Notes under the pieces: model-generated | The model's database searches: none | What the model saw: the letters and a program-made list of their open reading frames with translations, nothing else | What the model was told of the DNA's origin: nothing | Translations under genes and position numbers: made by a program | In this document: positions 37,124-52,394 of the stretch, piece after piece | Layout of the letters: each line of letters begins with the position of its first letter | Numbering within the stretch: the first letter of the stretch is position 1 | Source of the DNA: Methanomassiliicoccaceae archaeon | GTDB lineage: Archaea > Thermoplasmatota > Thermoplasmata > Methanomassiliicoccales > Methanomassiliicoccaceae | Direction: 5' to 3' | DNA: 64,000 nucleotides | NCBI GenBank assembly: GCA_963728405.1 | Contig: CAVSJV010000005.1 | Coordinates: 192,001 to 256,000 of the forward strand

Positions 37124-38938
37124 TCAGGCCGCTCCCTCCGCCCCTTCGCGATCGCCCACCATGGGCAGGGAATAGAACTCCACGAGGCGCTGCTCAAGGT
37201 CCCCCACCCGCTCTATGTCGACGTCATCGGGGAACGATGCACGCACCGCCGACAGCAGGTAGCGATCGTCCATCAGTATCACCGCCGCCCGGTCCCTCTC
37301 TCCCCTTATGGCCCGTCCGGCGGCCTGCAGCACCTTCGAAACGGCCGGGTACACCTGTACGTAGAGATTTGCCTTCCTAGGTCCAAAACGCTTCTCCATG
37401 CGGTCGAGCATCCCCTCCTGCTCTCGCGAGGGCGGCGACAGGGGCAGGCCGACCACGATGACCATGCTCAATAGGTTGTCGCGAAAGTCCACCCCTTCCG
37501 AAAGTGATCCGCTGATCGCCCCCAATAATAGGTTCCGCCCTTCCCGCAGCTGGCAGAGCACAGCGTCCCGTTCGTTCTTGCCGTGCTCTCTCCTCTCGAC
37601 GACCAGGCGGCGGTCCCGGACGGACGGCTCGAGGAGCTTTTCCACTTTCCCCAGGAAATCGTAGGAGGGGAAGAACACAGCAACATTGCCCGGTACGTTC
37701 TCAACGCATCTTGCCACCTCTCGGGCCACTGATTCATACATCGCCGGGGTCCGCAACCGGAAACGGGACGACACCCCCCCGGATGCAAGCACCAGCCGGT
37801 TCTCCGGAGGGAAGGGGGAGGGATAGCGGCGGCAGATCGCTCCCTCTGCTCCCAGCACTTCGGCGAACATCTCCGGCGGGTGGAGCGTGCCGCTCATGAT
37901 CAGTGTGCTGCGCACCCGGGCCAACACCGGAGCGGTCACCAAGGATGGGTCGATCAGGCCGACCACCAGGCGGGCGGGGTCGCCGTCAACATAGCGCACC
38001 GTGGCCTGGTTCGGAGCGCTCCAGGCATATAGGAAATCGACCAGCCCATCCAGGTCCGCCCCTCGGGAGGCGGCCTCGATCTCTTCGGCCAGACCTCCGG
38101 TGTCAACGCCACAGGCATGCTTCAGCGGCCCGTCCAGGTCCTCCGCTGTCATCTTCTCGGGGCGTCTCTTCTCCATTCGGGAGAGGATCTCGGCAATGAT
38201 GTCCAGGTCCTCGGTGAAGTGTTTCAACGATGGAGATGACCGAGCCCTCTGGAGGGCTGCGGCCGTCAAAGAACCGCTCCCTCCGTCCATCACCCTATTC
38301 GGCAGGTTGTGGGCCTCGTCCACCACTACGACCGCCTCATCCTCCCGGCGCCCCAGGCGCTGCAGCAGATTGGGCCCTCGGCCGAAGATCTGGTTATAGT
38401 CCCCGATGATTACCGTCGCTTCCGCTGCAGCCCGTAGCGCCACGCGATGCGGGCAGAGGCCGGCCCGAAGGCATAGGCGCATGCCTTCCTGAGTGTGGAG
38501 CGGATAGTCGAGGAGAAGCGACTGGGAGCCCTCGGGGTCCCGCGAGAAGAAGCATTGGCGCCCTTCGGCGCATGGTGCTCTCCTGCCCTCGTGACGCGCC
38601 AGGCACATATCTTCCCTGGCTATGAGGTCGACCACTCCGATCCGGCTCTTCTTCCATATGCCCCTCAGCGTCTCGATGGCGATGGCATGCTGGGCCTGCC
38701 GAGAGGTCAGGAACAGCACCACCCCACCGCAGGCCAGGGCCGTCTCCACCGCTGCGGTCAAGGCCACCGCGGTCTTGCCCAGCCCGGTGGGGGCATGGGC
38801 AACCAGATGCGTTCTTTGGGCCATGCACATCCGGGCATCCTCGAGGAACCTCTCTTGTCCCCCGCGGACAACCCGGTGGGGGAACAAGCCTGATGCCCGC
38901 CCCTCCTCTACCCTAAGATGTACCTCGCAGGCTTCCAT
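37124..38938 (-). CDS. XPD/Rad3/DinG-family Fe-S DNA helicase
   Basis: APTGLGKT, Cys cluster, DEAH, SGTL, FFPSY, EGVDF, QAAGRAIR. Confidence 0.9.
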   Translation of the reverse strand: MEACEVHLRVEEGRASGLFPHRVVRGGQERFLEDARMCMAQRTHLVAHAPTGLGKTAVALTAAVETALACGGVVLFLTSRQAQHAIAIETLRGIWKKSRIGVVDLIAREDMCLARHEGRRAPCAEGRQCFFSRDPEGSQSLLLDYPLHTQEGMRLCLRAGLCPHRVALRAAAEATVIIGDYNQIFGRGPNLLQRLGRREDEAVVVVDEAHNLPNRVMDGGSGSLTAAALQRARSSPSLKHFTEDLDIIAEILSRMEKRRPEKMTAEDLDGPLKHACGVDTGGLAEEIEAASRGADLDGLVDFLYAWSAPNQATVRYVDGDPARLVVGLIDPSLVTAPVLARVRSTLIMSGTLHPPEMFAEVLGAEGAICRRYPSPFPPENRLVLASGGVSSRFRLRTPAMYESVAREVARCVENVPGNVAVFFPSYDFLGKVEKLLEPSVRDRRLVVERREHGKNERDAVLCQLREGRNLLLGAISGSLSEGVDFRDNLLSMVIVVGLPLSPPSREQEGMLDRMEKRFGPRKANLYVQVYPAVSKVLQAAGRAIRGERDRAAVILMDDRYLLSAVRASFPDDVDIERVGDLEQRLVEFYSLPMVGDREGAEGAA

Positions 38939-39036
38939 GACTGGTCGATGTCGCTAGCCCCTAGCCATCGATTGTGACTAACCGTAAGCTGCGCTCAGAA
39001 ACAGTAATAACCGCGTCGCTTGTGTAAAACTGAACG

Positions 39037-40314
39037 ATGGAGCGGGGACGGGTCGATCGGCAGCGGCAGGGGGTGCAGATCGCCGCGATTCTATTCTTGA
39101 CCGTCCTTTCGGCCTATCTGGCCCGCATATCGCTCTCGGTCGCGTTGCCGTTCATCGCCCTGGACTACGGGTGGTCCGCCGAGCAGTTGGGCGGGCTGGG
39201 CGGAGTATTGCTGGGCATATTCCTGGTCGGTTACGGACTATCGAACATATTCATCAGCCCGCTCGCCGATTGCTACGGTCCACGGAAAGGATTGCTCATT
39301 GCCGTGCTGTCGTGGTCCATACTGACCTTGCTGACCGGTGTGGTGGGAATGTACTACGCCGCGTTCATCCTGCTGCGTACATCTCTGGGGCTGGCCCAGG
39401 GGGTGGTATTCCCCGCCGCAGGAAAGATCACTCAGGCCTGGTCCCCCCCGGAGCAGAGGTCCCGGATGAATGCGCTGTACTATGGTGCCATCGCTCTGGC
39501 CAATATTCTGTCGCCGCTCCTGCTGATCCCGCTCATCATCCTTACTTCCTGGAACATCATGTTCATCGTCCTGGCGGGCCTCGGGTTCGCCCTTCTGGTG
39601 CCGATGTTCCTCTGGCTCAGGGACTCTCCCGAAGGGCCGGCAAGCTGCGAGCAGAAGACCCTGGCCGATAACGTGGTATATGCCTTCAAAAATCTGAAGG
39701 AGGCCATCCGGGTCAAGGGGTTGTTCGTCCTTACGCTGGGCCACGCTCTGGAATCGATCGTATTCTGGGGCCTCTCCATGTGGTTGCCGACCTTCTTGGT
39801 GATGGCTCGTGGCTTTTCCCCCGACGAGCTAGTGTGGGCGGCCGCGCTTCCATACTTTGGATATATAGTCGGCCTGATCGTCGGTTCCTTCCTTAGCGAC
39901 CGCACCGGCAAGCGGTCCCGGGTCACTGGTCTGTTCTGCCTGGCCGGTGCCGCGGTTTTCTTCCTTATGATCCCTCTGGTCGGAAAGTGGGAGACCATCG
40001 CTGCCCTGGGTGTGGAGTTCTTCTTCATTGCGTTGGTGGGGCCGAACGTAGCGATGTTACTTCAGGGGTGCTGCACTTCCCGACTGACCTGTTCAGCGAC
40101 AGGGATAGAGAATGGGATCGCCAACGGTTTGGGGGCACTGGGCCCCATCCTCGTCGGCCTGGTGGTGCTGATGACCGGCTCTTACAATTCGGCCTTCTTC
40201 TTGCTCGCATTCCTCCTGATCTTGAGCGGGGTGGTCATCCTGAGGTTTAAGATATACGAGCGAGAGGCTAAGTGCCCTCTCCCTGAGCGAGGAGAGAAAG
40301 ATTATCATAATTGA
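39037..40314 (+). CDS. MFS transporter (ACS-like, 12 TM)
   Basis: LADCYGPRK, LSDRTGKR motifs and 12 hydrophobic segments. Confidence 0.88.
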   Translation: MERGRVDRQRQGVQIAAILFLTVLSAYLARISLSVALPFIALDYGWSAEQLGGLGGVLLGIFLVGYGLSNIFISPLADCYGPRKGLLIAVLSWSILTLLTGVVGMYYAAFILLRTSLGLAQGVVFPAAGKITQAWSPPEQRSRMNALYYGAIALANILSPLLLIPLIILTSWNIMFIVLAGLGFALLVPMFLWLRDSPEGPASCEQKTLADNVVYAFKNLKEAIRVKGLFVLTLGHALESIVFWGLSMWLPTFLVMARGFSPDELVWAAALPYFGYIVGLIVGSFLSDRTGKRSRVTGLFCLAGAAVFFLMIPLVGKWETIAALGVEFFFIALVGPNVAMLLQGCCTSRLTCSATGIENGIANGLGALGPILVGLVVLMTGSYNSAFFLLAFLLILSGVVILRFKIYEREAKCPLPERGEKDYHN

Positions 40315-40331
40315 ACTCGTTTTAAATTGCC

Positions 40332-41003
40332 ATGGACAAGCTGCCCTTCGGCTGCGGGAGCCTCGACGCCATGCTGGAAGGCGGCGTGGAAGCCGGTTGC
40401 GTCACCATGCTCTACGGTGAGGCCGGCACCGGCAAGACCACGCTCTGCCTCCTGCTGGCCAAGGACGTGGCCAGGGCGGGCAAGAAAGTGATCTATCTCG
40501 ACACCGAGGGGGTGTCGATGGATCGGCTGCGCCAGGTGGCTGGACCTGATTTCGAGGGGGTGGCCAAGAACATCCTGTTCTCCGCCATCAGCAGCTTTGA
40601 CGAGCAGGAGCGGATGGTGGACAAAGCGATCAAGCTCGCCCAGAGCAGCGTGGACGTGGGCATGGTCATCATCGACTCCATATCCATGCACTATCGATTG
40701 ACCAGCCGGGAAGAGGACCGCGGGGAGCGAAAATCGTTAGCCGGTCAGTCGACCAAGCTTACCAACCTGGCCCGGGAGAAGTCCATCCCTGTTCTGGTCA
40801 CTTCTCAGGTCTACACCGACGTGGAGACGGGAACGTTCGAAGCGCTGGGCGGGCATGCCCTGCATCACAACGCCAAGCTCATCGTGCGCGTCGACAAGGC
40901 CGGGTCCGGCGGGATGAGGAGGGCGGTGCTGATGAAGGCGCGCCATCTGCCCGAAGGCCTGGTGGCGGACTTCAAGCTCACTGGCACCGGGATCAGATGC
41001 TAG
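40332..41003 (+). CDS. radB: DNA repair protein RadB
   Basis: LEGGVEAG..YGEAGTGKT, YLDTEG, IIDS, short RecA core lacking the N-terminal HhH. Confidence 0.92.
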   Translation: MDKLPFGCGSLDAMLEGGVEAGCVTMLYGEAGTGKTTLCLLLAKDVARAGKKVIYLDTEGVSMDRLRQVAGPDFEGVAKNILFSAISSFDEQERMVDKAIKLAQSSVDVGMVIIDSISMHYRLTSREEDRGERKSLAGQSTKLTNLAREKSIPVLVTSQVYTDVETGTFEALGGHALHHNAKLIVRVDKAGSGGMRRAVLMKARHLPEGLVADFKLTGTGIRC

Positions 41004-41995
41004 GTCGTCCTGCCCACGGCGAAATCCATCAGTCCGCTTAGGAACTCCCTCTCCTTGCTGGGCGGGAGGCATTCCAGCTCCTTTTTGGCCTTCTCGGCAT
41101 AATCCGCGGCGGTCTGGCGGGCATGGTCTATGGCCCCGCAGTCCTGCAGGGCGTTGATGGCCGCTTCGATCTCTTCAGAGGTGGCCTTGGCGTTGCCCAG
41201 CGCTTTCAGCAGGGTCTTGCGCCGGGGGTCCGATCCATCGAGGCTGTGGAGCGCATGGAGCACGATCAGTGTCCGCTTGCCGTTGCGGATGTCGTTGCCG
41301 ACCGGTTTCCCTAGCGTCTTCTCGTCGCCGGTGAGGGCCAGAATATCGTCCCATACCTGGAAGCCCATGCCCAGCAGGCGGGCGTATTCCTTCATGCTGG
41401 TGATCTGCTCTTCGGTCCCGCCGGCGATGAGCGTGCCGCCCTCCGCCGCGCACTCGAACAGCACGGCGGTCTTCTTGTAGATCATGCTCATGTAATCGTC
41501 CATGGCCAGTTGGGCCGCGGGGATCTTTTCGAAGTCCATGTCCTCCTGCTGCCCTTCCGCGATGAGCCAGACGGTGTGGGCCGTGATCTTGAGGAGACGC
41601 TTCATTTGCTGAGGCGACACATCGCTCTCGGACAATACCTCGAAGGCGCGGGCGAACAGAGCGTCGCCGGCGATGATGGCGGTGGGTATGTCGAACAGCA
41701 CGTGCACTGCCGGCCGTCCCCGCCGCATCGAATCGTTGTCCATAACATCATCATGGACCAGGGTGAAGTTGTGAATGATCTCGAGCGAACAGGCGAACGG
41801 TATGGCCCTCTCTCCGGCCTTTCCCACCGCCTGCGCCACGACCTCCGCCAGTACCGGCCGTAGGCGTTTTCCGCCCGCGCTCGGATAATGCCTGACGGCC
41901 ATCATCAGCTTCTTATCATCGTCCCCCGCAAGGTACGACATGACCTGCCCATCTACAACTTTAGCTCGCTTGGTGATCTCTTTCAGGACATCCAT
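41000..41995 (-). CDS. idsA: Geranylgeranyl diphosphate synthase
   Basis: GGKRLRP, HNFTLVHDDVMD, RRG, GQ, KTA, FQVWDDIL. Confidence 0.92.
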   Translation of the reverse strand: MDVLKEITKRAKVVDGQVMSYLAGDDDKKLMMAVRHYPSAGGKRLRPVLAEVVAQAVGKAGERAIPFACSLEIIHNFTLVHDDVMDNDSMRRGRPAVHVLFDIPTAIIAGDALFARAFEVLSESDVSPQQMKRLLKITAHTVWLIAEGQQEDMDFEKIPAAQLAMDDYMSMIYKKTAVLFECAAEGGTLIAGGTEEQITSMKEYARLLGMGFQVWDDILALTGDEKTLGKPVGNDIRNGKRTLIVLHALHSLDGSDPRRKTLLKALGNAKATSEEIEAAINALQDCGAIDHARQTAADYAEKAKKELECLPPSKEREFLSGLMDFAVGRTT

Positions 41996-43059
41996 TGCCC
42001 ACCCTCCTGGTCGAACCATGCCCACTCCCTGGTGGAACTGGTAAGAATGTAATCTCTGGTCCCCAGCTCCCGGACGTTTGCCGCTCCGGTCAGGAACATG
42101 GCGATCCGAAGCTCCTCGATCATCAGACCGAGACGCTCCTCCACTGCCTTCGAGGACTCCATCGCCTCTTTGAGGACCGCTCGCGCGGTCCCGGCGCACT
42201 CGGCGCCCACCACGATGCTCTTGGCCGCCTGGAGGCCATTGACGATGCCCCCACTGGCAATGATCGGCAGGCCCACATCGGCCCACAGCACGGAAATGGG
42301 CGCCGGTATGCCCCACTCCCCGAACGTCTCGCCGATCCGCTCGCATCTCCGGTCCCCCATGTTCTTCGCCCTTGCTCCTTCCACCTTGGCGAAGCTGGTG
42401 CCCCCCGATCCGGAAACGTCGAGACCGCGCACCCCGATGCCCTTGAGACGCATCGCCACCGGCCGGGAGATGCCTGCCCCGGTCTCCTTGACGATGATGG
42501 GCAGCTCGCGAGAGAGCGAACGTATGCCGTCATAGCAACCCTTGGCCCTCGTGTCTCCTTCCGGTTGAGCGATCTCCTGCAGGAAGTTCAGATGGATGGC
42601 CAGGAGGTCGGCCCCGATCATGTCCATGGCCTCGCGGGCGTCCTCCGGACCGAAGGCGCGCTTGCGCTTCTGGGAAATGAGCTGAGGAGCGCCGATGTTG
42701 CCGACCTTTAGCGGAACGTCGAACTCCTTGATGATCTCGTAGCTCTTGCGGTCGCCCTTCTCCAGGGCGGCCCGTTGGCTGCCGACCCCCAGACCGATTC
42801 CCAGGTTCGCGCACGCCTCCGCCAGATTGCTGTTGATCTTCTCCGCTTTGGCATAGCCGCCGGTGATGGCCGTGACCATCAGGGGGCAGGCGAGCTTCCG
42901 GCCGAACAGCTCCGTGGAGGTATCTACGTCGTCCAGGTCGATCTCGGGCAGAGCGTCATGGACCAGCTTGACGTCGTCCCAGTAGTCATGGCAGGATGTC
43001 ACGTCCTCTTCCAAGGTTACCTGGATGTGGTCGGCCTTACGCTGCTCAATGCCCTTCAT
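41983..43059 (-). CDS. fni: Type 2 isopentenyl-diphosphate delta-isomerase
   Basis: RKADHI, AITGG, GSQR, HLNFLQE..PEGD, VKETGAG, GGTSF. Confidence 0.95.
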   Translation of the reverse strand: MKGIEQRKADHIQVTLEEDVTSCHDYWDDVKLVHDALPEIDLDDVDTSTELFGRKLACPLMVTAITGGYAKAEKINSNLAEACANLGIGLGVGSQRAALEKGDRKSYEIIKEFDVPLKVGNIGAPQLISQKRKRAFGPEDAREAMDMIGADLLAIHLNFLQEIAQPEGDTRAKGCYDGIRSLSRELPIIVKETGAGISRPVAMRLKGIGVRGLDVSGSGGTSFAKVEGARAKNMGDRRCERIGETFGEWGIPAPISVLWADVGLPIIASGGIVNGLQAAKSIVVGAECAGTARAVLKEAMESSKAVEERLGLMIEELRIAMFLTGAANVRELGTRDYILTSSTREWAWFDQEGGQWMS

Positions 43060-43835
43060 CGCTCATCACCCACTACTTTCGAGCCGATTACTTTTTCGCC
43101 CCGCAGGGCCGAGGCAAGACGGCCGGGTTTGAGACCATTAATTACGATCGCCTCTCCGCCGTACGAGGTTATCCTCATCATGGTCTCGATCTTGGCGAAG
43201 ATGCTGCCGGTGACGTCCGCGCACCGCTGGGTCCGCGGGAGCACATCCAGGGCGGAACGGTCCACCACCTCGATGAGCTGGGCCTCTGGATCACAGTTGG
43301 GGTCCTCGGTGAACACCCCATCGACATCTGCGCAAAAGATGATGCGCTCGGGAGCGAACTCCCTCGCCAGCGCTTCCATCAGCTGGTCCCCGGAACAGAT
43401 GCCGAACCGCCTCTCGCGGTCCAGAGCGACGTCCCCGAAGGTGACCGGGGCGATGCCCAGCTCCCGATAGTGTCGAAAGATCGAGAGGTCGATGCAGGCC
43501 AGCTCTCCGTTCGACAGCTCCGCCACCGCCGAGGGAGGGATGGAGACGGACGGGACGCCCGCGGCGTTCAATGCTGCGATGACCGCCAGGTTCAAGGTCC
43601 TGACGTCCTCCATGACCCGGGCCATGGCGGAGATCTGGGAATCGTTGCGGTAACCTTTCTGCAGCTGGTGCTCGGCGGCGATCACATGGCCGAAAGAACC
43701 GGCACCGTGGACCACTATTGCCGCTTGCCCGGAATCGGCGATCTCTTTGGCCAACCGGTGGACCGTCTCGTCTCGCAGCGTCCGGTAGCTCATCTTGTCG
43801 GTTATGACACTGCCGCCCAGCTTGACCAGCATCAT
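43056..43835 (-). CDS. ipk: Isopentenyl phosphate kinase
   Basis: KLGGSVITDK, VHGAGSFGH, SGDQ, DVTG. Confidence 0.93.
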   Translation of the reverse strand: MMLVKLGGSVITDKMSYRTLRDETVHRLAKEIADSGQAAIVVHGAGSFGHVIAAEHQLQKGYRNDSQISAMARVMEDVRTLNLAVIAALNAAGVPSVSIPPSAVAELSNGELACIDLSIFRHYRELGIAPVTFGDVALDRERRFGICSGDQLMEALAREFAPERIIFCADVDGVFTEDPNCDPEAQLIEVVDRSALDVLPRTQRCADVTGSIFAKIETMMRITSYGGEAIVINGLKPGRLASALRGEKVIGSKVVGDER

Positions 43836-43940
43836 GGTGAACGCTCGGAACATGAGCCGAGCCGTATAAAAAAGTGACAGTTATGGGGCAGCGATCGTCG
43901 AGGCCCATCCAATGTTATCTCGGAGCCCGACACGGATGCC

Positions 43941-44756
43941 TCAGATCTTCGCTCCACACTTACGACAGAAGACATCCTCCACGGATGCTTCACGGGAGCA
44001 GTTCGGGCAGGTCCTGGCCTCCTTCCTGGTGCCGCAGGCATGGCAGAACTCGTCGTCGGGACCAAGGTCGGCCCCGCATTTACGGCAGCTCTCAGAAACC
44101 GTGCTCGAAGGCACCTTCGGCGTTTCGCCGATGACCGTGACCGCCTTAGCACTCTCTGCTTTTTGGCCGCAGGTCAGCGCCCTCTTGGCCTTCATGGCCT
44201 GCTTCAGCGCTTCGTTGTAGTCCTCACCGTCAAAACTGGCCTGGGCGAGGTCCAGGGATCGCTGCGCTTCCTCCCTCGTCTCTGCTCGGGCCTCGGGGAT
44301 CAGGTCGCGGACGGTATCGATGACGAACTTGGATTCCAGATAGTTGGCGGGCAGCTTGCGTATGGCATGGGCGGGAACTTCCTTGCTCCCCTCGCATTCC
44401 TTATCCGCACTGGGTGGAGGAACGGGAAGGGTCAACAGGTCCTTCTCCTTGCAGTTGCGCAGGACGGTCTTGGCCCGCGTGGCCAGATCGATACTGTTTG
44501 TGAACTCGTGGCGTTCGTAGGCGCTCTCGGCCTGGTAAATGAGCACGTCCGCCTCGGTAGTGTCCCTTCCCGCTGCGCGCAGGGAGGTCGCCACGGCCTT
44601 GGTGGTAGCGACCGCATTGTATGCATCGTCCATCTCCAACGCGCCATCGAGCTTCACCGCCTTCTTTGAACGGATGTAACGAAGCTGAATGTAGGCGACG
44701 GCGGCTACGATAATAACGGCCAAGATGAGAATTATCGTCTCAGGGGGTAAGTCCAT
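43941..44756 (-). CDS. Membrane-anchored protein with C-terminal double zinc ribbon
   Basis: N-terminal TM; CRKCG..FCHACG..CPNC..FCRKCG. Confidence 0.82.
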   Translation of the reverse strand: MDLPPETIILILAVIIVAAVAYIQLRYIRSKKAVKLDGALEMDDAYNAVATTKAVATSLRAAGRDTTEADVLIYQAESAYERHEFTNSIDLATRAKTVLRNCKEKDLLTLPVPPPSADKECEGSKEVPAHAIRKLPANYLESKFVIDTVRDLIPEARAETREEAQRSLDLAQASFDGEDYNEALKQAMKAKRALTCGQKAESAKAVTVIGETPKVPSSTVSESCRKCGADLGPDDEFCHACGTRKEARTCPNCSREASVEDVFCRKCGAKI

Positions 44757-44791
44757 ACTTGCACCGGCTAGTCGAGTAACCGTCACCTAGC

Positions 44792-44974
44792 TTGACACTC
44801 CCACGAATGAAGTTCGTGGGATTCTGAGGCCACCGTCGTTCACGGCGTTGCCTCCTGGGGCGTATCAATGCGGCCCTTGCACCAATCTCTGTCTTGGTGC
44901 AATCGACACATGCCTTCTTCCAAGGAAGGACGCAACGCGATATTGAACGACGCGTTGGCGTCAGCGTGGTCAAC
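44792..44974 (-). mobile_element. IS200/IS605-family remnant: TnpB C-terminal fragment plus right-end hairpin (omega-RNA-sized)
   Basis: Minus-strand translation 44974-44840 gives VDHADANASFNIALRP...DTPQEATP* (TnpB RuvC-III motif), followed by GAATCCCACGAACTTCATTCGTGGGAGTGTCAA, a typical IS605 right end. Confidence 0.85.
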
Positions 44975-45190
44975 TGCCTGGTCGTCCCTAAGGACAAACC
45001 TACGCAGTTAATGTCAGAACTTGCACGCCCATTGAATTGCGGCAGTATAGTGACTAACGGAGGATTACCCTGAGAATACATAAAGGATTTGACTCCAGTC
45101 AGTCTACAATTAATAAATTGTGGTTTTCTTGCTCCACGGGTTAGTAGAAGTTTTTCGATACGTGTAGCATTGAACAAGAGAGATAAAAAG

Positions 45191-45315
45191 TGGCTGACAG
45201 CGCTCCATGGTTCCCGCGGGCTCGCGCACCGCAGTACAGCATGGAACGTTGGCGGGCTTAACTTCCGGGTTCGAATGGGACCGGGTGTATCCCCGCCGCT
45301 ATGGCCGTCACACCA
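45191..45315 (-). rRNA. rrf: 5S rRNA (stand-alone)
   Basis: Reverse complement ...GACGGCCATAGCGGCGGGGATACACCCGGTCCCATTCGAACCCGGAAGTTAAGCCCGCC...GCTGTC. Confidence 0.95.
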
Positions 45316-45378
45316 ACCCTCACAATAGAGAACATGTATATAAGCATTTCTCTCCGAGGCCCCTGCCATTCTCGCTGC

Positions 45379-46108
45379 CTAGAGCATAACGAATATCGCG
45401 CAGGCGAGCAGGCTGCTGATGGCCATGGAGAGCATGTTGACGTGCAGCTTGTTCACCAGACCTCTCCGTTCCAAGGTCGCACCGATGAGGCTATCGATCA
45501 TGCATCCGGCCACCCCCATGACGACGGGGATGAGGATCAAGGGGTTGAACAGCTGTTGCTGGATGATGATCCAACCGATGTAGGAGGCGAAGGCCGAGGC
45601 CACTATGCACGCCAGTGTGCCCACGCCAGATATCCCGCCGTCCGTTCCCGGCGGTACACGTTTGCCGGTGGTTATCAGATAGGTGCGATCGGAGAGAACG
45701 CCCAGCTCGCTGGCGGTGGTATCCGACGCGGCCACCGCCACTGCCGTGATGTACGCTATGGCGGCCAGGGTGGAGTCCTGGGCGCCCAGGAGATAGGTGA
45801 TGACCGCTACGAGGACCGGCACGAGGCCGTTGGCCAATACGTTCCGGTATGTTCTCTCTCCTTTCTTCCCTTCCTGGACTCCTTTCTTCTCCTTCATCTG
45901 GAAGCGGAACTTGGTGACGAAGAACCCCAGGAAACGTGAAGACAATGAGGGTAAGGAGCCAGCCGACCGAACCCAGCAAGCCGATAACCATCCCTACGAT
46001 GAACGAGGCCAAGGCGCCGCTCATCGTGAGCAGTCCGAACCGGTACGAGAGCACCGAGAGCGCCGCGCATAACACGAGCACGATGGCCAGGCTCTCCAGG
46101 CTTAGCAT
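45379..46108 (-). CDS. DUF92 (TIGR00297) membrane protein; frameshift near 45935
   Basis: RTYRNVLANG, ASDTTASELG, VPPGTDGGIS, DSLIGATLE. Confidence 0.88.
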
Positions 46109-46180
46109 GGGGGTAAAACAGGATGGCTAAATATTAATGTTGGGTGCCTTTTCCGACGCCAGATGTTGCTGAGATAGGTT

Positions 46181-49100
46181 CTACTGGCCATCTTTCCTGA
46201 TCTCATCGGCCAGGTCTGCCAGCTCGCTCGTCCCTGCCAAGGTCAATGAGGCGCCGCAGTTGGGGCACTTGGTCGAGTCCAGCCCGACGGTGGCATCGCA
46301 TACCGGGCACTCGATCGTCTCGGCTGGGGGACCTGGAACTTCTGGCTCGTTCTCCTCCTTTATGGGAATGATGTCCTTGATACTGCCCTTCAACAGGGGC
46401 CCGGCCCGATCCTTGATCCCCCGGACCTTGTCCAGGTCGCCGTCCCAGTCATGCAGGGCATCGTGGAAATCGGATTCCGCCTGGAATATGGTATCCCTCA
46501 TGCGCTGGGGCACCTTCCCCTCGCGCGTGCCGTGGAGAATCACTGCCAAGTAGATATGGTCGCCCTTCTCCACTAGGACCTTCTTCTCCCCGAAGTCCAT
46601 ACGGTTCAGGCCGGTGGAGGCCTCGTCCTTGAACGAATCACGTACGAAGTTCTGGATCGCCACCAACATGCTGCCCAGGATCTGGTCGTCCATGCCCGGC
46701 TTGAGCCTGCGGGTCTGGTGGGCGATCAGGTTGCCGTCCTCGTAGATGAAGAAGACCTCGTCGACGACCATCTTGAGGGCGCGGAAGTAGAGCAAGCAGA
46801 GTAGCGCGAAATAGTAGCCAAGGCCACTGCCAGGAGGTAGATCCAGGTGTCGCCGGCCGCTCCAGACGGAAATGGTCAGTGGCGTGGAGACGGAGCGTTG
46901 TGTCCTCCAGCGTCCTCGGCCCAATTGAAAGGTCAGCGGACCGGTGAAGTTGAGCGCCGTATGGTGGCCAATGAGGTATCGGTACCGGATATCCGACTCA
47001 TGACCATCGAATAGCTCTCGATTGTCTCCATCAAAGTAGAGGAGTGACTCTGACTATAGTGGACACATCGGTTACGTTGACGGTCACCATCAGATCGTCC
47101 CCGCGATAGGCCTTGGTCAGTACAGCAGCGGTGTCCAGTTCGATGTTCCGGGCCTTCGTTATCCACCAGTACAATGTGTCGGGCTTCCCACCATCCCCCC
47201 TGGTCGCGGACCTCCAAGGCTCACGGAGTAGCTGCCGTCTAGCGGTGTAGTTCTTCCAGGCGTTCTTGCTCGAGGACCACTCGGTCCAGCCGTTCCCTTC
47301 AGCGAAAGTTCCATCTGAACAGAAGCGATGAATTGTCGCTACGGTGTCCCAGCTACTTACTGGCGTCGAAGCTGTAGTTGCCGGGTTGAACTCCAGGGCG
47401 GTGACCGACGCCACTGGCTTCACGTTCTGGACCACCATGGTAAGAATCCGCTCGTTGAAGGAGTTCGGATCGTTTTCGAATCGTAGACCCTAACACAGAC
47501 TACATATTGCTTGGACGCGTGGTACGACCAGGAGGTCTGGTTAATCGAGATCCCTGAGGCCTCGACGAAGACCCTGACGGCATCGTAGTCAAAGTCCCAG
47601 GCGAACTTGGTGATGGGTACACGGGGAGCCTGCTGGGCCGAGATCTGGAAGCTGATCTGCTCGTCCATGTTGAAGGTGATTTTTCCTCCGTCCGCGATAA
47701 TTTCGTCCACGGTGGGCGAGGTCGGCTGAACAACAATGGTGCGGCTGGTCTTCGACACGACCCCGTCCAGGTCGGTCACTGTCAGGTTGACCAGGTAGGT
47801 CCCCGAGTCCATGTAGCTGCAGGTGACGTTCTTGGTGATGAATGTCCGACCATCACCCAGCTCCCAGAACAAGGAGGATACCCCATCGTAGGAGTATGAC
47901 ATATCGGTGAGGATGATGGTCTCCCCCTCCACGGGGTTCAGTTTGGACGGGGTGAACGAAGCGGTTGGCGGGGTGTCCCTCACAACGATGGTAACGTTAG
48001 CGACCGCCTGGTCACCGTCCGAATCGGTGATGGTGAGTGTGACATTATATGCGCCCTTGATGGGGAACCAGTGGATGGCGTCCTCGCTCGGGTCCGGCTG
48101 GCTGCCATCGTCAAAGTTCCAAGAGTACGAGGTTATGGTGTCTGGAGATGAGTACGAATCATCATAGAACGAGACCGTGTCGTTCTCGTCGATCGCAGAG
48201 GCGGAAACCCTGATGCCGGCGGTCGGGGACAGGTCGGCCACATGGACGTACTGGGAGGCGTTGTCAAATTTTCCGTCAGTGTCGGTGATGTTCAGCCACA
48301 CCCGATAAGTGCCGTCCTGGGCGTACTTGTAGGTAGTGTTCTGGGTGTAGGCATAGTTGCCATGGCCGAAGTCCCACCTCCAGGTTATCGCGTCATAGTG
48401 GATCGAGGTATCGTTGAACCATACGGTGTTGTTCTCCGGACCATTGTCCGGTACGAAGGTGAACGAGGCCACTGGGGCGATGTCGGCGACCACGACCTGG
48501 AAATAAGTGAAGTTGGTGAGCCCGCCGCGGTCGGTGACCCTCAGGTAGCCATCATAGGTCCCGCTCTTCGCAAAAAGGTACTGCCCGCTCTTGAGCGTCG
48601 ATGTGCCGCCCTGTTCGAAGAACCAGTAGTATTGGAGCGAATCCCGGTCGGAGATCGAGTCAGTGGAATTCGATGCATCATACCTTATCGAGTTTCCCTC
48701 GGTGAGCGTAAGGGTCGAGAGCCACCTGTCCGCTTTCGGTACCAAGTTATGCTGCAACCAGTAGCTAATGGCTGAGGATGCGGACGATGACGCTATGAAA
48801 TCATCCCGTCCGTCACCGTTGACGTCCCCCGCGAATGAACCGTTGGCTGGCCCCCCTGTGGTCATGTTGATCGGATTGACGAAGCCGGAGGCCCCCTTGC
48901 TAAGGAACAGTGCGATTTCAGGTCTTCCAGAGTAGCTGATCAAGAGGTCCGTCAAACCATCGTCATTGAGGTCTGCTGAACGCACCTGGTTTCCTGTGCC
49001 AGCGAGAGGGAAGGAGCTCGAAGGTGGAGTGTTGATATAGAATCCGATCTCGCTGTTCGTGAATATATAGGCCGAATTGGAGGAGGATGTCACGGCGATA

Positions 49101-51037
49101 TCGTCCCTGCCGTCGCAATTGAAATCACCACTGGCCATCGAAATCGGCGTTCGGGAGACCATATTGAGCCAGCGTTCGGTCCATGTTGGAAGCAGCTTCC
49201 AATGGACTCGCTAGCGTTCTTGTAGAAAACCTCTACTTGACCCGTTCCTAGATTCAATGCGGCAATATCTCCACCTTGATCCTAGTGGATTGAAGTTGCC
49301 AAGGATTACTTCGGTCCTGTCACCTGGTGAAGCGAGCCCAAGCACTTCATGGACCGGGTTGGAAAAAGCATCGTAGATGATTTCGACCCCATTCCTGCAA
49401 CCGATCACCAGTACTGTCTGGTCTATGTCTTGGACCCATCCTCCGGTGATCGACCATGGCTCCCCCGTGTGTAGGTCGATGTTGAAATCCGGCGCGGTTC
49501 GGGTCATGAAATCCGGCCCACCACGATAGATACTGATGCTGCTGCTCAATCGGTTTATCACAGCGAGGTCGCCGATGCCATCCCTATCCAAGTCGCCAAT
49601 GAAGAGTCCGCATGGTCCGTTTTGTGTGGTCAGCGTAGTGGCAATTGTGCCGGCAAGGTCGGTGACACGAACGGCATTTTGGTCTTGGATGATGGATGCA
49701 ATCACAGCAACGGAGACGTTGCCCGCCACTATGCCGGATGGTTTGCCGTTTTGGAAGATGCTCTTATCCGCATTTCCTATACCATTTGAACTATACTGGA
49801 AGAATTCAAGGGCAGTAGGAACTCCCCCACCCCCTGCAGAGAGGACATAAATGCCCTTCATTACCGTCCCTGAATCGATAGTGATTGTCCGGACGGGCGC
49901 CTTGTTCACCGGAAATCTAGAGTAGATGTTCTGGTCCAGAATGCCTGATTGACGAGGATAAATCTTGCAATCATTGTTCTGGGACGATATGATTACCAGA
50001 TCTGGAAGACTGCTGCCGCTCAATCTACCGAAGCTCATCGAGCATAATCCGGTAGCACCTAGAACCAACCGGGTAGCTGCGTTGGGAACTGTCGATCCTG
50101 TGTTGTTCCTTATCTCCACGCGGTCGTAGGCCGCATTGGCAATCGCAAGGTCTCTGATGCCACTGCCGGTATTGTTGATCATCCGAAGATCGACGATCGC
50201 CCCTCCCACATTGATCGTGCCATAGTTGCTCCAGGCCGAAGTGAGGGTACCCGCAGGCGAAGGTTGCACGAGCAAGGTCACATTTGGACCGTTGAAATCT
50301 CCAACTACGAGATCCTGTAAGCCGTCCGAATTAATGTAGCCGGCCGTTATAAGTTGGGGGTTGTTCTGATTTGTGAGCCCTATGATGGCCTTCGTGCCAG
50401 CACCGAAGAACGGCGATTTTACCAAGACCACAGATGAGAAGAACCCCAGGTCTCTGTCCCCTCCGCATACGACAGCGATATCGTTGGTGATGGAATTGTC
50501 AAAGTGGCCGATCACGACCTGATACGGATTTGGTATGATGATGTTCACATCAACCAGTAAGTTGAAGTCATTGCTCTGGTTGAAGATCGAGACGATGGGG
50601 TTGCCAAGGTTGTCAGTATAGGAAGCTGCGATGTCGTCCTTGCCATCGTTCGTAAGGTCTCCGATGGCGATACGGACCAAATTCGACATACCGATTTTTG
50701 ATATTATTCTCGGGGTCACCTGTAAATGACCATCGGAGGAACCGAAGTAGATGAAAATGTTCGTTCGGTTCGCCACCACCACATCGGTCAATGAGTCATG
50801 GTTGAGGTCGCCGAGTGCCATGTCCCGCACCTCAGCGGGCATGGGATATGAGATCGAGTGGTTCGAGAAGATCGTTCCCTGTTCGAATATGGTCGATTGA
50901 TCGTACTGTGGGGCCTCTGATGCAATATCATCTTTATGATCTGGTAGGTCAGGCATTACGCTCTGGGCCATTAGGAGCAGTGCTAACGCTAGTATGGACA
51001 GCAACCACGCTAAACCACTGGCTCTTCTCATCCGCAT
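46181..51037 (-). CDS. Giant surface protein: signal peptide, FG-GAP repeats, PKD repeats, TM, cytoplasmic longin/roadblock-like domain and zinc ribbon; broken by several frameshifts
   Basis: ORFs 49211-51037 (GDLNHDSLTD, GDLTNDGKDD, GDLDRDGIGD), 47420-49162 (GDFNCDGRDD, WDFG, WNFDDG), 47031-47438 and 46181-46924 (VDEVFFIYEDGNLIAH...GSMLVAIQNFVRDSF; CPVC/CPNC). Confidence 0.75.
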
Positions 51038-51227
51038 CCCAAGACGGCCAGATGGAAAGCGGCGAGTGTGTATATAATCCTAATCAGGATAATTCAACGT
51101 CTAAATAAAAAATAAGAGATCGACACATCTGGATATACTAAAACGGTCTTAATAAAATCAACGCGGATAATTGGAGACCAAGCCCTATATATCTGCCTCC
51201 CAGTAGCATTCTACAGGATGGGATGCA

Positions 51228-51617
51228 ATGTATTTCGATATAGCTCAGTTGACCTGTGATGTGGACAGCAGGCGCATTCTGTCTTCCATAGACAGAAAAC
51301 CAAGATCGGCCAAGGAGATCGCTCAGACCTGCCATATGTCCATCTCCCGGTGCTACCGCATGATAAGGGAGATGGAGGACTACCGGATCCTACGACGGGC
51401 CGAGGTGGACGGGCGCGAGGCCTCGTATATCTCGAACCTGCGCTCCATCGAGCTCAGCCTGGAGGACGACCATATCTTCCTTACCGTCGACTACCGGGAT
51501 GGAACCAGGACCGAGCTTCGGCTGGGTCCAGAGGACCTTGAGAGGGCCGCCCCGGCCTCTTTACCTCAAGGTCTTCTGGCGACCAATGATTCCAGCGAGC
51601 CTTCCACTGCCTCGTAG
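51228..51617 (+). CDS. ArsR/wHTH transcriptional regulator, divergent from the surface protein
   Basis: SRRILSSI..PRSAKEIA..ISRCYRMI. Confidence 0.8.
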   Translation: MYFDIAQLTCDVDSRRILSSIDRKPRSAKEIAQTCHMSISRCYRMIREMEDYRILRRAEVDGREASYISNLRSIELSLEDDHIFLTVDYRDGTRTELRLGPEDLERAAPASLPQGLLATNDSSEPSTAS

Positions 51618-51865
51618 ATCAGGTCGGCCGCCGAGGCAGCCCCCTCCTTGGACTCGATCCGAGAGATGAGCATGCGCCCACTGGTGTACAGGGTTATCTC
51701 AAAGTCGGCGGATCTGGCGATGAGCATGGGTCCCTGCATGGTGGTCTGGTAACCCTTCTGTTCTAGTAGTTCGGCAGCTTTGTTCAGGTCGTACCGCACG
51801 CTCTCGCTCGGAACCACGGACATGGCATCCTGTTTGCACAACCGGACCAGCTTGAACTTCACCAT
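51566..51865 (-). CDS. Hypothetical protein (TBP-like alpha/beta fold possible)
   Basis: 99-aa ORF coupled to the upstream kinase; EITLYTSGRMLI. Confidence 0.65.
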   Translation of the reverse strand: MVKFKLVRLCKQDAMSVVPSESVRYDLNKAAELLEQKGYQTTMQGPMLIARSADFEITLYTSGRMLISRIESKEGAASAADLIYEAVEGSLESLVARRP

Positions 51866-52394
51866 GCCCGGTCCAGCTCCTCTTTCGCCTTCGCGTGGAA
51901 CTCCTCCAGCGAGCTCTCATTGACGATCATCACATCGGCCAGGGCGATCAACGCTCCTAGGCCCCAGCCCAGCTCGCGTTCGTCCCTTTCCTTGAACTCT
52001 TGCCAGGTGTGGGGGGCGTCGTAACGGCCCCTGCTCCGCAGCCGGTCGAATCGGCGCTCTGGGGAAGTGTGGACGGCCACCAGTCTAACGCCCTTGCCAA
52101 GGGCAGATCGGAAAAGCTCGATCTCCGCCACGCTCCTGGAGCCATCGATGACGACATTTCCTTTCCCAAGAAGAGGGAGACAACGTTCGGCCCAGATCCC
52201 GGACCGTGGGCCTGCCGTTCCGAACTGGCGAACCCACCGACCCCCCGGTCGTCCATGGCCACCTTGCGCTTCTCCGCTTCCAGCCGAACCACATCGCCCA
52301 TTCGGATGACGGAGTAACCGTCCTGCTGGGCCACCTTGACGAACTCTTCCTTGCCCGCTCCGGGCATTCCGGTCAGGACGAAGACCTTGGACAT
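51859..52394 (-). CDS. Archaeal dephospho-CoA-kinase-like P-loop protein (UPF0200); frameshift near 52200
   Basis: TGMPGAGKEEF, MGDVVR; second frame VVIDGSRS, RGRYD, RDERELGWG. Confidence 0.8.

Follow-up and report, generated by a model that had tools for sequence, protein, structure and literature searches.

A probable gene-less mini-transposon of the IS200/IS605 type with a predicted omega-RNA scaffold, located between 5S rRNA and zinc-ribbon genes of a methanogenic archaeon

IS608 of Helicobacter pylori, the bacterial prototype of the IS200/IS605 family, is an autonomous element (tnpA and tnpB) that inserts 3′ of TTAC without target duplication, ends on its right side in TCAA and carries subterminal hairpins at both ends. 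The guide RNA (reRNA) of ISDra2 TnpB reportedly consists of a scaffold formed by the tnpB 3′ end and the right end (RE), and takes its guide from the DNA flanking the RE. The PATEs of Geobacillus stearothermophilus are described by Meers et al. 2023 (PMC10055086) as gene-less elements that depend on TnpA in trans and often encode omega-RNAs needing TnpB in trans from other IS copies. The same report shows the retention mechanism for bacterial relatives (PMC10055086). For Halobacterium salinarum, sotRNAs have been reported (PMC4615843), non-coding transcripts from the 3′ ends of IS1341-type tnpB genes. TldR is reported to be a domesticated nuclease-dead TnpB that acts with a guide RNA as a transcription factor (PMC10705468). 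In a limited, keyword-bound literature search, we found no paper on mini-elements of such a kind in methanogens, and a paper on circular archaeal omega-RNAs (PMC12558985) mentions none of the terms MITE, orphan, standalone, truncated and PATE.

Here, we analyzed a locus in a window of 64,000 nucleotides from the genome (G000) of a methanogenic archaeon, in which TBP was found at three loci and McrA at a single locus; the assembly is 93.75% complete and comprises 18 contigs. A sequence-only reading of the window had described the locus as an orphan omega-RNA that might be an expressed, trans-acting guide. Our analysis indicates that it is very probably a copy of a gene-less mini-transposon (MITE/PATE), whose parent in this family of methanogenic archaea is an IS200/IS605-family element with a TnpA remnant and a 339-aa TnpB. 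All features of this locus are given on the minus strand.

The two neighboring genes are located outside the element. Upstream is a 5S rRNA gene (45192-45312; Rfam RF00001, 95.3 bits, E 4.4e-20), and downstream is an ORF for a 271-aa protein that carries a double zinc ribbon at its C-terminus (43941-44756, ATG at 44756), which matches the Pfam families Zn_Ribbon_1 (2.4e-09) and DZR (6.7e-09). This ORF is intact, its orthologous ATGGAC start is present in relatives, and the element is co-oriented with it. Between the two genes, the last 44 codons of a tnpB gene (VDHADANASFNIA...QEATP, 44974-44843) are followed by a TGA stop (44842-44840); the full translation is VDHADANASFNIALRPSLEEGMCRLHQDRDWCKGRIDTPQEATP. 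Together with its stop (44840-44974), the remnant runs from DHADANASFNIA, the RuvC-III motif, up to the natural C-terminus in a tblastn comparison. It lacks the Zn-finger coding sequence and has an in-frame TAA 12 codons upstream. The right end comprises a hairpin with the arms CCCACGAA (44820-44813) and TTCGTGGG (44807-44800) around CTTCA, and then the terminal AGTGTCAA, which ends at 44792. Two further inverted repeats are present in the segment, TTGCACCAA-N8-TTGGTGCAA (44902-44877) and CAACGCG/CGCGTTG (44933-44939 and 44951-44957). The sequence-only reading had reported the tnpB tail with its upstream stop, the hairpin, the inverted repeats and both neighboring genes; because every listed feature is present on the minus strand, this observation is confirmed. 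The boundary at 44792 that it had proposed is exact, as six other copies in the genome share the terminus GTGTCAA and diverge beyond it.

A stretch of 1.4 kb around the locus was compared with 40 related genomes. In the closest relative (G003), the 5S side adjoins the downstream-gene side, and the flanks are 84-86% identical. With junctions marked by a slash, the empty site of G003 reads ...GAAAAATGTTTTAC/GCTAGGTGATG, and the occupied site of G000 reads ...GAAAAACTTCTAC/TAACCC...GTGTCAA/GCTAGGTGACG. Over a longer stretch, these become ...GTATCGAAAAATGTTTTAC/GCTAGGTGATG in G003 and ...GTATCGAAAAACTTCTAC/TAACCCGTGGAGCAAG...GGGAGTGTCAA/GCTAGGTGACG in G000. The core of the junction is TTTTAC/GCTAGG in G003 versus TTCTAC/352 nt/GCTAGG in G000, with zero duplicated bases. 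Based on this comparison, the inserted unit is the 352-nt segment 45143-44792, and its left end had been overlooked in the sequence-only reading. It directly follows a TTAC-like motif (here CTAC, 45147-45144), and the target is not duplicated. It is missing from this site in all ten same-genus genomes, in which the flanks are about 345-350 nt closer to each other than in G000; a check of relatives suggested by the sequence-only reading therefore finds no conservation. The intergenic sequences were examined for nine of the ten, and in G005 the locus is split over two contigs and a second copy of the 5S gene plus downstream gene is likewise short. The exact 26-nt right flank had no match in metagenomes searched for other samples of the species, so a presence/absence polymorphism is not visible.

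The left end (LE; 45079-45143) contains GAGCAAGAA (45134-45126) and, next to it, a subterminal hairpin that has diverged, CCACAATT-TATT-AATTGTAG (45123-45104), which together begin 9 nt past the TAM-like CTAC. A motif of the form GAGCAAGAAAG-hairpin-GATGAATTGCGAC is common to nine LEs in relatives, and in these a TTAC-like sequence (TTAC in seven, CTAC in one and TTAT in one) stands 7-8 nt ahead of GAGCAAG. Between the left end and the tnpB remnant there is a non-coding middle block (44979-45052; CACTATACTGCCGCAATTCAATGGGCGTGCAAG...) that is specific to mini-elements. It is conserved in eight mini copies of five genomes and was not found in the full-length elements searched for it. A small hairpin within the block, GTCC-TTAG-GGAC (44995-44984), covaries among the copies and occupies the position of the Zn-finger coding sequence of full-length copies. 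One may speculate that the middle block serves as an internal promoter or as a 5′ extension of the RNA.

The eight mini copies are 336-375 nt long and reside at unrelated loci. Besides the present copy, the same architecture occurs in G000 at C3:62717-63052 and C4:129198-129572, and in relatives at L050 and L063 (G003), L052 (G010), L062 (G019) and L066 (G013). Common to the minis are the LE motif (GAGCAAGAA, hairpin and ATGAATTGC), which is also present in the full-length element of G010, the middle block and an identical junction to GTTGACCAC at the tnpB 3′ end. In addition, four metagenome loci, two of which are apparently one locus, carry the ends TTAC/...GAGCAAGAA and GTGTCAA. A search with BLAST and nhmmer located five complete right ends in G000, namely this copy, C3:307785-307985, C3:92293-92492, C3:62862-63052 and C7:328939-329140, along with one copy that is cut short on the 3′ side (C4:129376-129548) and two fragments; every complete copy finishes in GTGTCAA and diverges past it. 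A trend of mini copies to lie upstream of co-oriented genes was considered and rejected, as the contexts of eight G000 copies are mixed.

These shared features bear on the alternative that a full-length insertion sequence entered the site and then lost its 5′ part in place, leaving a dead right end. Simple 5′-truncated ends or fragments do exist in G000 (C3:92293-92492, C7:328939-329140, C3:209858-209924 and C3:196549-196579), with no LE found in the 420 nt upstream of them. The present copy, however, has GAGCAAGAA and the hairpin 9 nt past CTAC, and it shares its middle block and tnpB junction with seven copies at other loci or in other genomes. Deletion in place would not yield such sharing, and we regard it as very improbable. 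The sequence-only reading is thus supported in that the retained piece represents an RNA scaffold without its own gene; a unique, decayed orphan is not supported, because the piece belongs to a two-ended mini-element copy.

The transposed mini-element has a recognizable parent. In G010, a full-length element shows the order TTAC/LE, a 91-aa HUH remnant, a 339-aa TnpB and the RE GTGTCAA/. The 91-aa remnant has an HVHLF motif and a weak match to Y1_Tnp (PF01797, 25.1 bits). The TnpB matches PF07282 (Cas12f1-like_TNB, 6.2e-22), and its sequence matches in the PDB are TnpB and Cas12f chains (best 1.8e-18). The tnpB remnant of our locus corresponds to residues 296-338 of this TnpB with 88% identity (tblastn). 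Among 22 related loci, tnpB is a single 339-aa frame in seven, broken or truncated in four, reduced to the last 27-51 codons in ten (two of which are at contig ends and not classifiable) and without a protein match in one. The locus itself shows what is expected of a MITE/PATE, namely insertion next to a motif without duplication, hairpins at both ends and a small, gene-less unit at multiple loci. A Y1 (HUH) TnpA acting in trans is also expected of such elements, and PF01797 had no match in the 93.75% complete G000 assembly. Within the family, PF01797 was detected in two of 24 genomes, as a full gene in G013 and as remnants in G010. The missing TnpA bears on present mobility and not on descent, because the empty sites indicate past transposition.

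The 3′ part of the element (44792-44978) is a predicted omega-RNA (reRNA) scaffold of 187 nt, composed of the tnpB 3′ end and the right end, and is homologous to the 3′ ends of the seven single-frame 339-aa tnpB genes. The fold of a 194-nt RNA from this region has an energy of -82.1 kcal/mol (z = -4.47), which none of 200 shuffled sequences reaches. A consensus structure was derived from an alignment of 26 right ends of ten genomes. It has 38 pairs, 19 of which show compensatory changes on both sides, and the RE hairpin (44820-44800) covaries across the 26 copies. The present copy keeps all 38 pairs, and no copy with an intact tnpB keeps more. Standard pairs fill 93.8% of the cells versus 85.5% in shuffles, and the covariation score is 0.322 versus 0.180 (in both cases, 0 of 500 shuffles are as high); on four of five measures no shuffle of the 500 matches the observed value, a control that overstates the significance because the aligned sequences are related. 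When the partners are slid by 1-3 columns, 35-47% of the cells are paired. The pair types are also distinct between copies, for example CACCAA/TTGGTG and CATGCA/TGCATG. A reasonable reading, based on the slid control and the many pair types, is that the 3′ 187 nt represent a conserved structured RNA.

The Rfam search (38000-52000 at gathering scores; 44600-45400 at E up to 10) returned only the 5S gene and no scaffold family. Weak matches to HDV-F-prausnitzii, mir-8229 and MS2 were discarded as chance (E 3.4-9.9). As no Rfam family recognizes the RNA, its identity as an omega-RNA rests on its position and on the homology to the tnpB 3′ end; the Rfam miss may simply reflect the lack of a model for such a scaffold. 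Sequence features that characterize omega-RNAs are present, since the segment overlaps the tnpB 3′ end, extends to the RE boundary with the flank as putative guide, and has a covarying structure.

The sequence-only reading had further suggested expression of this RNA behind the 5S gene. Oligo-T tracts end archaeal transcription. A T5 tract adjacent to the 5S gene (45185-45189), probably such a terminator, separates it from the element, and a T4-T5 run occurs at the matching place behind the 5S gene in ten related genomes. Because of this tract, transcription of the 5S gene is unlikely to continue into the element, which opposes co-transcription. The public runs X1, X16, X17 and X18 cover only the 5S gene and a portion of the upstream gene, and nothing on 44300-45145; in 20 of 22 runs, the share of sampled words does not exceed 0.11. 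These runs are uninformative on expression or habitat.

The T5 tract is one of several observations that weigh on the alternative, in line with the sequence-only reading, that an orphan omega-RNA has been kept as an expressed trans guide for a TnpB- or TldR-like protein and targets the zinc-ribbon leader or a second site. The would-be 20-nt guide, GCTAGGTGACGGTTACTCGA (44772-44791), lies directly 3′ of the RE and is also part of the leader of the co-oriented zinc-ribbon gene. The scaffold is whole although the left end has decayed, and TnpB-like proteins are numerous in G000 (16 stretches matching PF07282 and 14 matching PF01385, with several open frames of 407-424 aa). However, the guide is the flank by construction, as at any IS200/IS605 right end. 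The resident site is no target, because the element puts the TAM 352 nt from the guide match. No second site for the guide was found in the genome, where its closest 16-nt matches differ at three positions and its closest 20-nt match at four, so no trans target is apparent.

The protein side of this alternative is similarly unfavorable. The sequence-only reading had proposed looking for an intact or nuclease-dead TnpB in the genome. The only cognate tnpB in G000 (C3:306922-307928) matches the G010 TnpB with 68-90% identity in three pieces and three frames (tblastn), and the remaining TnpB-like matches share no more than 37% identity with the cognate protein. Alignment with two intact relatives shows that the cognate gene is broken by two +1 single-base insertions, neither of which is in a long homopolymer; it is most likely a pseudogene. 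In all 14 TnpB-like C-termini inspected by eye, the Asp of the last RuvC motif is retained, and thus no nuclease-dead candidate is seen at that motif. Because the assembly is incomplete and in 18 contigs, the absence of an intact tnpB or tnpA is not proven, as unassembled repeats could hide either gene. As to the marks of a TldR-type system, the locus has no adjacent gene for such a protein, it is absent in the ten congeners, and its guide has no second site. Two of the three findings that the sequence-only reading had itself listed as arguing for a plain decayed element, lack of a cognate TnpB and similar truncated ends elsewhere, were both obtained, in that no intact cognate TnpB was found and such ends occur at several other loci. 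We consider a retained trans guide highly unlikely.

For the mini-element, the following course would account for the observations. The copy was most likely mobilized at an earlier time by a Y1 TnpA acting in trans. Like its parent, it landed 3′ of a TTAC-like motif with no duplication of the target, and here this placed it between a BRE/TATA-like motif and the start codon of the zinc-ribbon gene. Its RNA, once transcribed and bound by a cognate TnpB provided in trans, would be guided by the adjacent 16-20 nt of flank. TnpB could then cut the emptied donor version of the same site, so that the element would be restored by recombination. The role would be homing and retention, as known for such elements, and not regulation in trans. 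In G000 this system looks defunct, with a tnpB pseudogene, no Y1 transposase found, CTAC as the TAM and a diverged left end. As both protein partners are apparently missing, the copy is probably immobile and inert at present, except for an effect on the promoter of its neighbor.

Such an effect is suggested by the insertion point. Between the oligo-T tract and the zinc-ribbon gene, nine congeners have an A-rich motif with a T-run and AC (e.g. CGAAAATATTTTTAC; in one, TTTTAGC) that lies about 35-45 nt ahead of the ATG. Its position, its composition and a comparison by eye with the archaeal consensus suggest a BRE/TATA promoter. In G000, the remnant of the motif (TCGAAAAACTTCTAC) is in the left flank (45144-45158), whose last bases are the TAM-like CTAC. 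The element sits exactly at the end of the promoter-like motif, the TTAC of which is the TAM. The insertion at this point moved the motif 352 nt away from the gene. In G000, the T-run is also broken (CTTCTAC).

The left end of this copy is unusual within the family. Its first 65 nt are 47-58% identical to the seven other minis, which are 54-82% identical among themselves, whereas its omega-RNA part is 68-90% identical to them (58-87% among themselves). The first 100 nt have a GC content of 38% versus 46-54% in the seven others. The TATA-like TTTATTAA inside the left-end hairpin (45117-45110) is the sole match to YTTAWWWW among the eight minis. When 23 family genomes were searched with the first 104 nt (E up to 0.1), nothing matched, so that a separate LE lineage is not demonstrable. 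The left end is far more diverged than the omega-RNA part, which uniform neutral decay of one transposed copy does not account for. Candidate causes are a chimeric ancestry, conversion of the 3′ part by other copies, and selection or remodeling of the 5′ part into a promoter for the displaced gene.

The last of these candidates leads to an extension that is compatible with the mini-element interpretation, namely that exaptation is under way. The zinc-ribbon gene would be transcribed from or through the element, with the left end (TTTATTAA, TTTATGTA) as its new promoter and the omega-RNA as a long structured 5′ leader. The displaced motif and its broken T-run, the low GC content and the single YTTAWWWW match are consistent with this idea, as are the intact downstream ORF and the fact that no AT-rich box is visible from the RE to the ATG. 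On the other hand, the promoter was assigned by eye against a general archaeal consensus, and the idea concerns one locus, with the other copies showing no common orientation towards genes. We regard exaptation as possible, although rather unlikely. A broader version appears still more doubtful. It would have an immobilized mini-element, its TAM altered to CTAC and its left end remodeled and AT-enriched, whose intact omega-RNA module separates a host gene from the displaced promoter, an mRNA led by a guide-RNA scaffold, and a family that constitutes a self-contained mobile omega-RNA gene with its own conserved middle module, parasitizing TnpB and TnpA in trans in methanogenic archaea. If it were true, the locus would show exaptation at an early step, with an omega-RNA element being drawn into the control of a host gene.

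Because the apparent unique orphan is an ordinary transposed mini-element, the locus does not merit follow-up as a new regulatory system. Its value lies in the documentation of an omega-RNA-bearing MITE family in methanogenic archaea, with exact boundaries, a TTAC-like TAM and a TCAA end, for which a relative supplies an intact 339-aa cognate TnpB. The covariation-backed RNA structure should aid the annotation of these genomes and the mining of compact TnpB/guide pairs. The insertion is also a clean natural case in which such an element has come to separate a gene from its promoter-like motif.

Comparison with the described systems places the element as follows. It resembles IS608 in its position 3′ of a TTAC-like motif and in its GTCAA end, and differs from it in having no ORF, CTAC as the TAM and a diverged LE hairpin. 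It shares with the ISDra2 reRNA the make-up of the scaffold and the predicted use of the flank as guide; in contrast to ISDra2, the scaffold stands here without a gene, and the cognate TnpB is shorter (339 aa). Both the present RNA and the sotRNAs of H. salinarum are archaeal RNAs of tnpB 3′ ends. The sotRNAs reportedly overlap intact tnpB genes (PMC4615843), whereas in our case the gene is gone and the RNA is predicted from sequence. Like TldR systems (PMC10705468), the locus has an omega-RNA-like guide near the promoter region of a host gene; unlike them, it has no adjacent or cognate dead protein, no TAM-flanked target for its guide and no conservation in relatives. The closest counterparts are the PATEs of G. 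stearothermophilus. The present element is likewise gene-less with left and right ends of the family type, but it is archaeal, has a middle block with a hairpin that replaces the Zn-finger sequence, and resides in a genome in which neither an intact cognate TnpB nor a TnpA was detected. PATEs that encode omega-RNAs have already been described (PMC10055086), and by that description the present element is one more, ordinary element of this type.

In genome G010, the parent-element loci L048 and L049 have the order left end, 91-aa Y1 transposase remnant and intact 339-aa tnpB. The remnant (L048:1480-1755, and also in L049) retains an HVHLF motif and gives a weak match to PF01797, the Y1 transposase (TnpA) profile. 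Because this remnant lies between the left end and an intact tnpB, the ancestor of the family was an element with both tnpA and tnpB, of which tnpA has since decayed.

The present genome holds other derivatives of the same family. L007 (G000:C3:209858-210181, minus strand) arose by an internal deletion different from that of the mini-elements, and keeps the left end with about 58 codons from the start of tnpB, whereas its right end is reduced to the terminal ~68 nt. In the 40-nt unit of L008 (G000:C3:196541-196580), the left-end motif is represented by its 5′ part (GAGCGAGAAAGCC), which is followed by a single hairpin and the right-end terminus AGTGTCAA. L008 looks like a fusion of the left and right ends, formed when their hairpins recombined with each other.

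Genome-wide, 16 stretches match PF07282 and 14 match PF01385, both TnpB-side profiles. The TnpB-like stretches span at least four TnpB lineages, and several are open frames of 407-424 aa. A genome-wide search found no match to Y1 TnpA, and any TnpA match occurs in only 2 of the 24 genomes of the family. Despite this scarcity of TnpA, the occurrence of both empty and filled sites demonstrates past movement of these elements.

At the locus itself, the mechanical ORF list contains a 209-aa ORF (window 44740-45369, minus strand) that crosses the 5S rRNA gene and the entire mini-element and is almost certainly not a gene. The genome has a further 5S rRNA gene at G000:C4:265067-265201, a stretch that matches the window's 5S gene region (positions 385-519 of the query in the locus search) with 100% identity. 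A partial TBP-domain match at G000:C18:52989-53102 contains a single interrupting TAG, so that either the match is a fragment of a pseudogene or this TAG is decoded as an amino acid.

The mini-element also contains a middle block (…TATACTGCCGCACTTCAATGGGCGTGCAAGTTCTGG…; window 44979-45052, minus strand), which is followed by the covarying hairpin. The same block is present in the mini copies L050, L052, L062, L063 and L066 of related genomes and in loci L005 and L003, and between genomes it is better conserved than the left end. The full-length elements of the family have no counterpart to this mini-specific block, for which an internal promoter or a 5′ extension of the RNA may be suggested speculatively as candidate roles.
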